From Escherichia coli (lineage in GTDB: Bacteria; Pseudomonadota; Gammaproteobacteria; Enterobacterales; Enterobacteriaceae): a stretch of 35,919 bases of DNA. The notes beneath the pieces were generated by a model, which worked only from the letters and a program-made list of their open reading frames with translations, made no database searches and was not told where the DNA came from. The first letter of the stretch is position 1, and the number at the start of each line of letters is the position of its first letter. The DNA is taken from the NCBI RefSeq assembly GCF_003334305.1, contig NZ_QOWS01000032.1. One strand, written 5' to 3'. Position numbers and translations under genes: made by a program. Positions 32,524 through 34,256 of the stretch are shown piece after piece.

Positions 32524-32557
32524 TTAGCCACCTCCGGTAATTTTTTTTAAAATTTTC

Positions 32558-32585
32558 TGAACTCTTTCTTCCCAGGCGAGTCTGA
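32558..32585 (+). promoter_or_regulatory. SigmaE-type promoter of micA (-35 TGAACTC, -10 GTCTGA)
   Basis: TGAACTC at 32558..32564 against the sigmaE -35 consensus GGAACTT. 15-nt spacer. GTCTGA at 32580..32585. Predicted start about 6 nt downstream, at the G of GAAAGACGCGC. Confidence 0.55.
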
Positions 32586-32591
32586 GTATAT

Positions 32592-32664
32592 GAAAGACGC
32601 GCATTTGTTATCATCATCCCTGAATTCAGAGATGAAATTTTGGCCACTCACGAGTGGCCTTTTT
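32592..32664 (+). ncRNA. micA: MicA (SraD) small regulatory RNA
   Basis: Sequence GAAAGACGCGCATTTGTTATCATCATCCCTGAATTCAGAGATGAAATTTTGGCCACTCACGAGTGGCCTTTTT matches MicA as recalled. It ends in a terminator hairpin GGCCACTC-ACGA-GTGGCC plus U-run. Located between luxS and gshA, as in E. coli. Confidence 0.8.
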
Positions 32665-32672
32665 CTTTTCTG

Positions 32673-34256
<1,584 letters not shown>

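Follow-up and report, generated by a model that had tools for sequence, protein, structure and literature searches.

The plus strand between luxS and gshA in the stretch of Escherichia coli DNA analysed here (35,919 nt, hereafter the window) carries, with near certainty, micA, the gene of an Hfq-dependent small RNA of about 73–76 nt at positions 32592–32667, transcribed from a sigma-E promoter at 32558–32585. The locus is MicA itself rather than a relative: all of its defining features that are open to computation were found, and there is no evidence against the identification. The family assignment, the identity with K-12, the anatomy and conservation of the promoter, the RNA structure, the gene order and the complementarity to ompA were computed here. 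The dependence on sigma-E and Hfq, the repression of ompA, the processing of luxS transcripts by RNase III and the mapped RNA ends are taken from the literature, in which all of the functional evidence comes from papers on K-12 and Salmonella; the strain of the window is a different one. The RNA, the sigma-E promoter that drives it and the way it overlaps luxS transcripts have been on record since 2001–2010. The practical lesson is one of annotation, micA being invisible to tracks based on open reading frames, whilst the manner in which gshA transcripts end at, or cross, a hairpin shared with micA is of modest interest to the field of convergent transcription.

Identity and conserved setting of the RNA

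The luxS–gshA intergenic region comprises 149 nt (32524–32672). The original prediction placed a MicA RNA in the range 32524–32675, which adds the gshA stop codon (reading TCA at 32673–32675). Bases 32521–32523 are the complement of the luxS ATG, which lies 69 nt from the MicA +1 position. A covariance-model scan, proposed with the prediction as its check, was run with Rfam over the whole window and returned RF00078 (MicA) at 32592–32663 on the plus strand, with 83.9 bits (E = 7.8e-12) against a gathering score of 41 and with the model covered over its full length (positions 1–75 of 75). In E. coli K-12 MG1655, micA (b4442) is annotated at 2814802–2814874, corresponding to 32592–32664 in the window (window position = MG1655 position minus 2782210). 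An alignment of the surrounding 201 nt to MG1655 shows a single mismatch, outside the RNA, which is 100% identical. Of 5426 complete E. coli genomes, 5424 contain a match to a 401-nt query around micA, many of them at 100%. The Rfam match, the K-12 annotation and the identity of the RNA thus bear out the prediction of MicA at this site. They agree too with the proposed RNA start at about 32592, which coincides with position 1 of the Rfam match, with the start of micA in MG1655 and with a published −1 position at 32591. It was also correct to call this a known locus, since the curated K-12 record includes micA as b4442, and to warn that a track of open reading frames misses it: one pipeline-annotated RefSeq E. 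coli record, identical in this region, has luxS and gshA only.

Homologous loci were collected from one genome per species by an exact 25-nt pattern within the 5' end of the RNA, with no use of the promoter, and the upstream sequences were aligned on the RNA start. Because the selector was an exact match to the MicA 5' end, divergent MicAs are missing from the sample and the conservation seen at the 5' end is biased. The order luxS(−)/micA(+)/gshA(−) is found in all 110 loci with both flanks; a further 11 of the 121 loci end too near micA to show both neighbours. In every locus having a luxS flank, luxS is divergent from micA, and the distance from its ATG to the MicA +1 position ranges from 67 to 177 nt across loci (median 73). 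On the other side, 111 of 113 loci have the gshA stop codon 8–27 nt from the stem of the terminator (median 13).

The closest known system is E. coli K-12 micA, which has the same RNA, neighbours, sigma-E promoter, two stem-loops and ompA seed. The RNAs do not differ, and one base (32548, T for A) distinguishes the two upstream of the −35 box. RybB and MicL, other sigma-E-controlled small RNAs of enterobacteria, have a promoter of the same class and likewise act through a 5' seed in the Hfq-dependent repression of mRNAs for outer-membrane proteins or lipoproteins (PMC1804206; PMC4618604). They are, however, unrelated to MicA in sequence and lie at other loci, whereas MicA overlaps the transcripts of its neighbours on both sides. 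The coordinates of the locus are collected in Table 1.

Table 1. Features of the luxS–micA–gshA locus in window coordinates. Read counts are those of published Term-seq (Adams et al. 2021, Supplementary file 1).
Feature	Position	Strand	Basis or reads
luxS CDS (S-ribosylhomocysteine lyase), divergent from micA	32008..32523	−	ORF list and annotation
AT-rich, UP-element-like stretch T8 A4 T4, 5' of the −35 box	32541..32556	+	Conservation; PMC1851643
Sigma-E promoter, −35 element TGAACTCTT (consensus GGAACTTTT)	32558..32566	+	Sequence; consensus from PMC1804206
Sigma-E promoter, −10 element GTCTGA (consensus GTCAAA)	32580..32585	+	Sequence; consensus from PMC1804206
micA gene (MicA/SraD small RNA), ~73–76 nt	32592..32667	+	Rfam, MG1655 annotation, published Term-seq
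Single-stranded 5' seed, MicA nt 7–24, pairing with target mRNAs	32598..32615	+	RNAduplex, fold, Rfam consensus
Published proximal luxS mRNA 5' end (R3/transcription start)	32605..32606	−	Derived from PMC2956633
MicA stem-loop 1, 4+3 bp	32615..32634	+	Rfam consensus and minimum-free-energy fold
A/U-rich linker AAAUUUU between the stem-loops	32635..32641	+	Unpaired in fold and Rfam consensus
MicA Rho-independent terminator, GGCCACU-CACG-AGUGGCC (32642–32659) and tail UUUUUCUUUU	32642..32669	+	Terminator scan
gshA-strand 3' end, 5 nt past the stem	32637 (MG1655 2814847)	−	M63, 177,654 reads
gshA-strand 3' end, in the loop	32651 (MG1655 2814861)	−	LB OD 0.4, 34,625 reads
MicA 3' end	32667 (MG1655 2814877)	+	LB OD 0.4, 143,109 reads; LB OD 2.0, 50,179 reads; M63, 122,784 reads
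gshA CDS (glutamate-cysteine ligase), convergent with micA	32673..34229	−	ORF list and annotation
gshA-strand 3' end, within the gshA ORF	32704 (MG1655 2814914)	−	LB OD 2.0, 305,886 reads
luxS P1 promoter, sigma-S-type, inside gshA	Start G 32855; −10 TATGAT 32868–32863	−	PMC2956633

Searches for structured RNAs elsewhere in the window returned three tRNA genes on the minus strand, at 3546–3621, 35574–35650 and 35852–35919. One has the anticodon CAT, with Rfam and ARAGORN in agreement, one is a tRNA-Arg (ACG), and one is a second Arg copy, which is cut by the end of the window and is therefore found by Rfam and missed by ARAGORN. Rfam also gives a match to naRNA4 (RF02564) at 25917–25994 on the plus strand, with 65.2 bits against a gathering score of 59.5; this looks like a pair of palindromic repeats of the REP type.

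Sigma-E promoter in register with the RNA start

A sigma-E promoter composed of TGAACTC, 15 nt and GTCTGA had been predicted upstream of the RNA. It is present at that place, and its register, its conservation and the published dependence on rpoE all back the call. TGAACTC occupies 32558–32564, the 15-nt spacer 32565–32579 and GTCTGA 32580–32585, followed by a discriminator of 6 nt (32586–32591) and a G at +1 (32592). The predicted interval of 35 nt to the luxS start codon is accurate if positions are counted: from the A of the ATG to the T of TGAACTC is a step of 35, and 34 nt lie between. The −35 element TGAACTCTT agrees with the 9-mer sigma-E consensus at seven of nine positions, and GTCTGA with the −10 6-mer at four of six. 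The defining features of a sigma-E promoter were set as a GGAACTT(TT) −35 box in which AA is invariant, a −10 box (G)TCAAA in which C is invariant, some 16 bp of spacer between the boxes and a discriminator of about 6 bp. These features are all present here, with a spacer of 16 bp when counted from GAACTC to TCTGA and a discriminator of 6 bp.

As a motif, this arrangement is no rarer than chance. For the loose pattern GAACTY-N15-17-TCNRA the window contains one match, at this site, against 0.71 expected, a count that is not significant, and 49 of 100 shuffles contain at least one match. The promoter call therefore rests on the register with +1 and on conservation across species. Among 111 distinct Enterobacterales sequences, positions −32 to −30 (AAC) and −27/−26 (TT) are kept in 110–111, as are T−11, C−10 and A−7; G−12 is kept in 105 and T−9 in 107, and spacer positions −25 to −17 are freely variable. 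Two fixed boxes in register with +1 are the footprint of a promoter, and one that fits the published sigma-E consensus.

The experimental record points the same way. Deletion of rpoE leaves virtually no MicA, overexpression of rpoE induces it, and a luc fusion to the micA promoter region from −85 to −1 tracks MicA levels and responds to rpoE (PMC1851643). The primer used to clone this fragment ends at window position 32591, which sets +1 at 32592, and the same paper describes the micA promoter with a 16-bp spacer, a 6-bp discriminator and the invariant C (PMC1851643). In Salmonella, GFP fusions to the micA promoter fall to background in a delta-rpoE strain (PMC1804206), and the dependence on sigma-E is also covered by a review (PMC4618604); by this published genetics, micA transcription strictly requires sigma-E.

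Ahead of the −35 box, at 32541–32556, the species alignment shows a conserved run of T followed by one of A. A conserved AT-rich element in this position was noted in 2007 (PMC1851643). On the minus strand the same bases form the A-rich stretch immediately 5' of the luxS Shine-Dalgarno sequence. The sole difference from MG1655 in the 201 nt falls inside this element, where T in place of A at 32548 gives T8A4 rather than T7A5; the T allele is common to many other E. coli genomes at 100% identity.

A sigma-70 scan also reports a −10-like TATACT on the luxS strand at 32585–32590, the complement of MicA positions −7 to −2. Its bases are kept across the 111 Enterobacterales sequences, and it matches none of the published luxS 5' ends. 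Either simply the AT-rich sigma-E discriminator or a second signal on the luxS side could account for it.

Structure of MicA and pairing with ompA

The fold computed for MicA (−20.5 kcal/mol, z = −2.98) leaves the 5' region free and forms stem-loop 1 and, beyond an A/U-rich linker, the terminator hairpin, in agreement with the Rfam consensus structure. The seed, nt 7–24, is unpaired or weakly paired in the fold and unpaired in the consensus. The linker is presumed to be the Hfq-binding stretch, and a role for Hfq in the action of MicA is established (reviewed in PMC4618604). In 97 distinct homologues, 98.7% of the structure cells are paired, compared with 29–52% when the partners are slid. Stem-loop 1 is paired in 98.4% of its cells, with three pairs altered on both sides. 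The terminator stem is 97–100% paired, and its loop-closing pair occurs as A-U, U-A, G-C and C-G. Four pairs of the structure are changed on both sides, a count reached by one of 500 shuffles, although with so little variation in the RNA the support from covariation is thin.

The leader of ompA was taken from MG1655, as the gene lies outside the window. With MicA nt 1–24 as the query, RNAduplex pairs nt 7–24 with positions −22 to −5 of ompA at −21.7 kcal/mol, an energy equalled by three of 1000 shuffles. The corresponding comparison with full-length MicA yielded a long, physically meaningless duplex, matched by 60 of 1000 shuffles, and was discarded. It has been reported that MicA pairing with ompA blocks ribosome binding and, together with Hfq, lowers the synthesis of OmpA in envelope stress (PMC4618604), and Hfq-dependent repression of OmpA in vivo has been published for both E. 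coli and Salmonella (PMC4618604; PMC1851643). In the trans mechanism, MicA accumulates once sigma-E is activated, and its nt 7–24 pair with ompA, and with further envelope mRNAs, in the region where ribosomes bind. Translation is thereby blocked and mRNA decay hastened, so that less outer-membrane protein is made.

Overlap with the transcripts of gshA and luxS

The hairpin at the end of micA, GGCCACT-CACG-AGTGGCC at 32642–32659 followed by TTTTTCTTTT, is the first structure after the gshA stop codon, and the 3' UTR of gshA and the 3' end of MicA consequently overlap. The original prediction had the hairpin ending 8 nt before this stop codon. The stem ends 13 nt away, and the figure of 8 nt holds for the annotated RNA end at 32664, after U5 of the tail; the 3' end of MicA mapped by Term-seq is 5 nt from the stop codon. 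On the plus strand the hairpin is called by the terminator scan, and the tail, UUUUUCUU in the window, has six or seven T in eight in all 78 distinct homologues. On the gshA strand the scan calls no terminator at the hairpin, and the tail AAAAUUUC has three U in eight and no U-tract, with a range of 0–4 U in eight over the 78 homologues. Judged by its sequence, the hairpin is thus a predicted terminator for micA alone.

The hairpin had also been predicted to serve as a bidirectional structure for gshA, and this part of the prediction stands in a weaker form. According to the published 3' ends, gshA transcripts can end at the hairpin, but they do so in some conditions only, and the lack of a U-tract, the restriction of the scan call to the plus strand and the read-through by luxS transcripts do not favour termination in both directions. 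Ends on the gshA strand vary with growth condition: in M63 a strong end lies opposite the MicA end, in LB at OD 0.4 the end is in the loop, and in LB at OD 2.0 no gshA-strand end is called at the hairpin, the main end being within the gshA ORF. Termination and exonuclease trimming are inseparable in these Term-seq data. The hairpin probably helps to form gshA 3' ends.

A stronger version of this idea, that the hairpin is a true bidirectional intrinsic terminator ending both micA and gshA transcripts, is possible but doubtful. The stem folds on the minus strand as well, it is the first stable structure past the gshA stop codon at a spacing of 8–27 nt in nearly all Enterobacterales loci, and the M63 end at 32637 is abundant. 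Bidirectional intrinsic terminators, as they are described where cited (Ju, Li and Liu 2019, cited in PMC7815308), have a GC-rich hairpin between convergent units, as is found here; in one or more conditions, RNA 3' ends have also been mapped on either strand of the micA hairpin, whether by termination or by trimming. Compared with that description, the micA locus differs in having a U-tract on the micA side alone, gshA ends that depend on condition, and read-through from luxS. The last of these arises from P1, 332 nt upstream of the luxS AUG and inside gshA, whose transcripts run through the hairpin. Trimming of longer transcripts by a 3'-to-5' exonuclease could equally leave an end just past the hairpin.

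On the other flank, transcription of luxS overlaps both MicA and its promoter. The published proximal 5' end of luxS mRNA overlaps MicA by 14–15 nt (PMC2956633), which places it at about 32605–32606 and puts the whole micA promoter under the luxS 5' UTR; the predicted overlap of the micA promoter with the luxS 5' region is confirmed in this way. A longer class of luxS transcripts starts at P1, at −332 from the luxS AUG, runs antisense through micA, reads through the hairpin and is cleaved in dependence on MicA and RNase III (PMC2956633). The minus strand of the window has the expected G at 32855 and, at the expected distance, a TATGAT preceded by C. MicA is perfectly antisense to those longer luxS transcripts started inside gshA. 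A comparable layout is seen for SraG between rpsO and pnp, which is opposite to two flanking genes of the same direction and so antisense to their UTRs, as far as it is treated in the relevant part of PMC5029454; on the same account it differs from MicA in the genes concerned, the promoter class and the targets.

This layout raises the alternative that the RNA serves mainly in cis as an antisense control of luxS, through RNase III cleavage upon pairing with long luxS leaders or through interference between the overlapping promoters, with trans targets being secondary. Northern blots and primer extension have revealed a shorter luxS species that depends on both MicA and RNase III (PMC2956633), MicA is perfectly complementary to the luxS transcripts that start upstream of it, and the position of the micA promoter under the luxS 5' UTR accompanies a divergent layout that is kept in every locus with a luxS flank. 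Overexpression of MicA, however, caused no detectable change in LuxS protein in the one study examining it (PMC2956633), and a review calls the effect of MicA on luxS unclear (PMC4618604). Conservation within the RNA is, moreover, strongest in the 5' seed that pairs with ompA; the invariance of this seed in our sample is partly by design, but the Rfam consensus is invariant there too. Control by sigma-E and outer-membrane protein targets together form a coherent circuit with experimental support (PMC4618604; PMC1804206; PMC1851643), and a main role in cis is accordingly improbable.

It may also be asked whether MicA and the gshA 3' UTR are obligate antisense partners with a regulatory role, through an overlap of about 31 nt (32637–32667) that includes the Hfq-binding tail. 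The spacing of 8–27 nt between stop codon and stem would then keep the overlap across Enterobacterales, and the gshA-strand ends that shift with condition could be products of gshA mRNA processing by way of MicA, or a sign that this mRNA titrates MicA. Such an arrangement, if true, would couple envelope stress to glutathione synthesis. No report of coupling between MicA and gshA was found in the literature surveyed, and we consider the idea very improbable. That the region instead encodes a small protein can be practically dismissed: a 48-codon frame at 32590–32736 (+) with its ATG overlapping the RNA start is present in the mechanical ORF list, but transcription starts at the G of this ATG (32592), leaving the start codon outside the RNA, a Shine-Dalgarno sequence is missing, the frame crosses the terminator and continues antisense into gshA, and the covariance model, structure and promoter register fully account for the conservation. 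The preferred reading thus remains that of a trans-acting sigma-E-dependent MicA, whose terminator hairpin and promoter are overlapped by the transcripts of its neighbours.

Several further RNA ends and signals surround the locus. The minus-strand end at 32704 in LB at OD 2.0, inside gshA and 181 nt upstream of luxS, has six times the MicA read count in that sample and is not discussed in the literature surveyed. An RNA from the luxS P1 start to this end (32855 to 32704, 152 nt) is predicted to fold at −53.5 kcal/mol (z = −2.3), with its exact 5' end paired with a stretch 5 nt from its 3' end. As a conserved structure this candidate was rejected, the closing helix being 58% paired in 112 Enterobacterales sequences against 27–45% in slid controls; the RNA may be a stable leader or an ORF-internal fragment found in E. 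coli only. Adjoining the 32704 end, at about 32702 near the C-terminus of GshA, there is a coding difference from K-12, the window having GAAACCGCT (Thr) and the MG1655 string given with the Term-seq data GAAGCCGCT (Ala).

On the plus strand, antisense to gshA, a region of Rho termination has been mapped at MG1655 2815245, or about 33035 in the window (Adams et al. 2021, Supplementary file 2), which implies some plus-strand transcription that either runs on for about 370 nt after the MicA terminator or begins beyond it. At the far end of luxS, this gene (−, stop at 32008) converges with emrB (+, stop at 31944) on a common hairpin, GCCAGTTCATTTGAACTGGC at 31956–31975, with T6 on its plus side. 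A strong minus-strand Term-seq 3' end at MG1655 2814159/60 (about 31949–50) lies just beyond it, making this a second hairpin common to convergent genes, 700 nt from that of micA.
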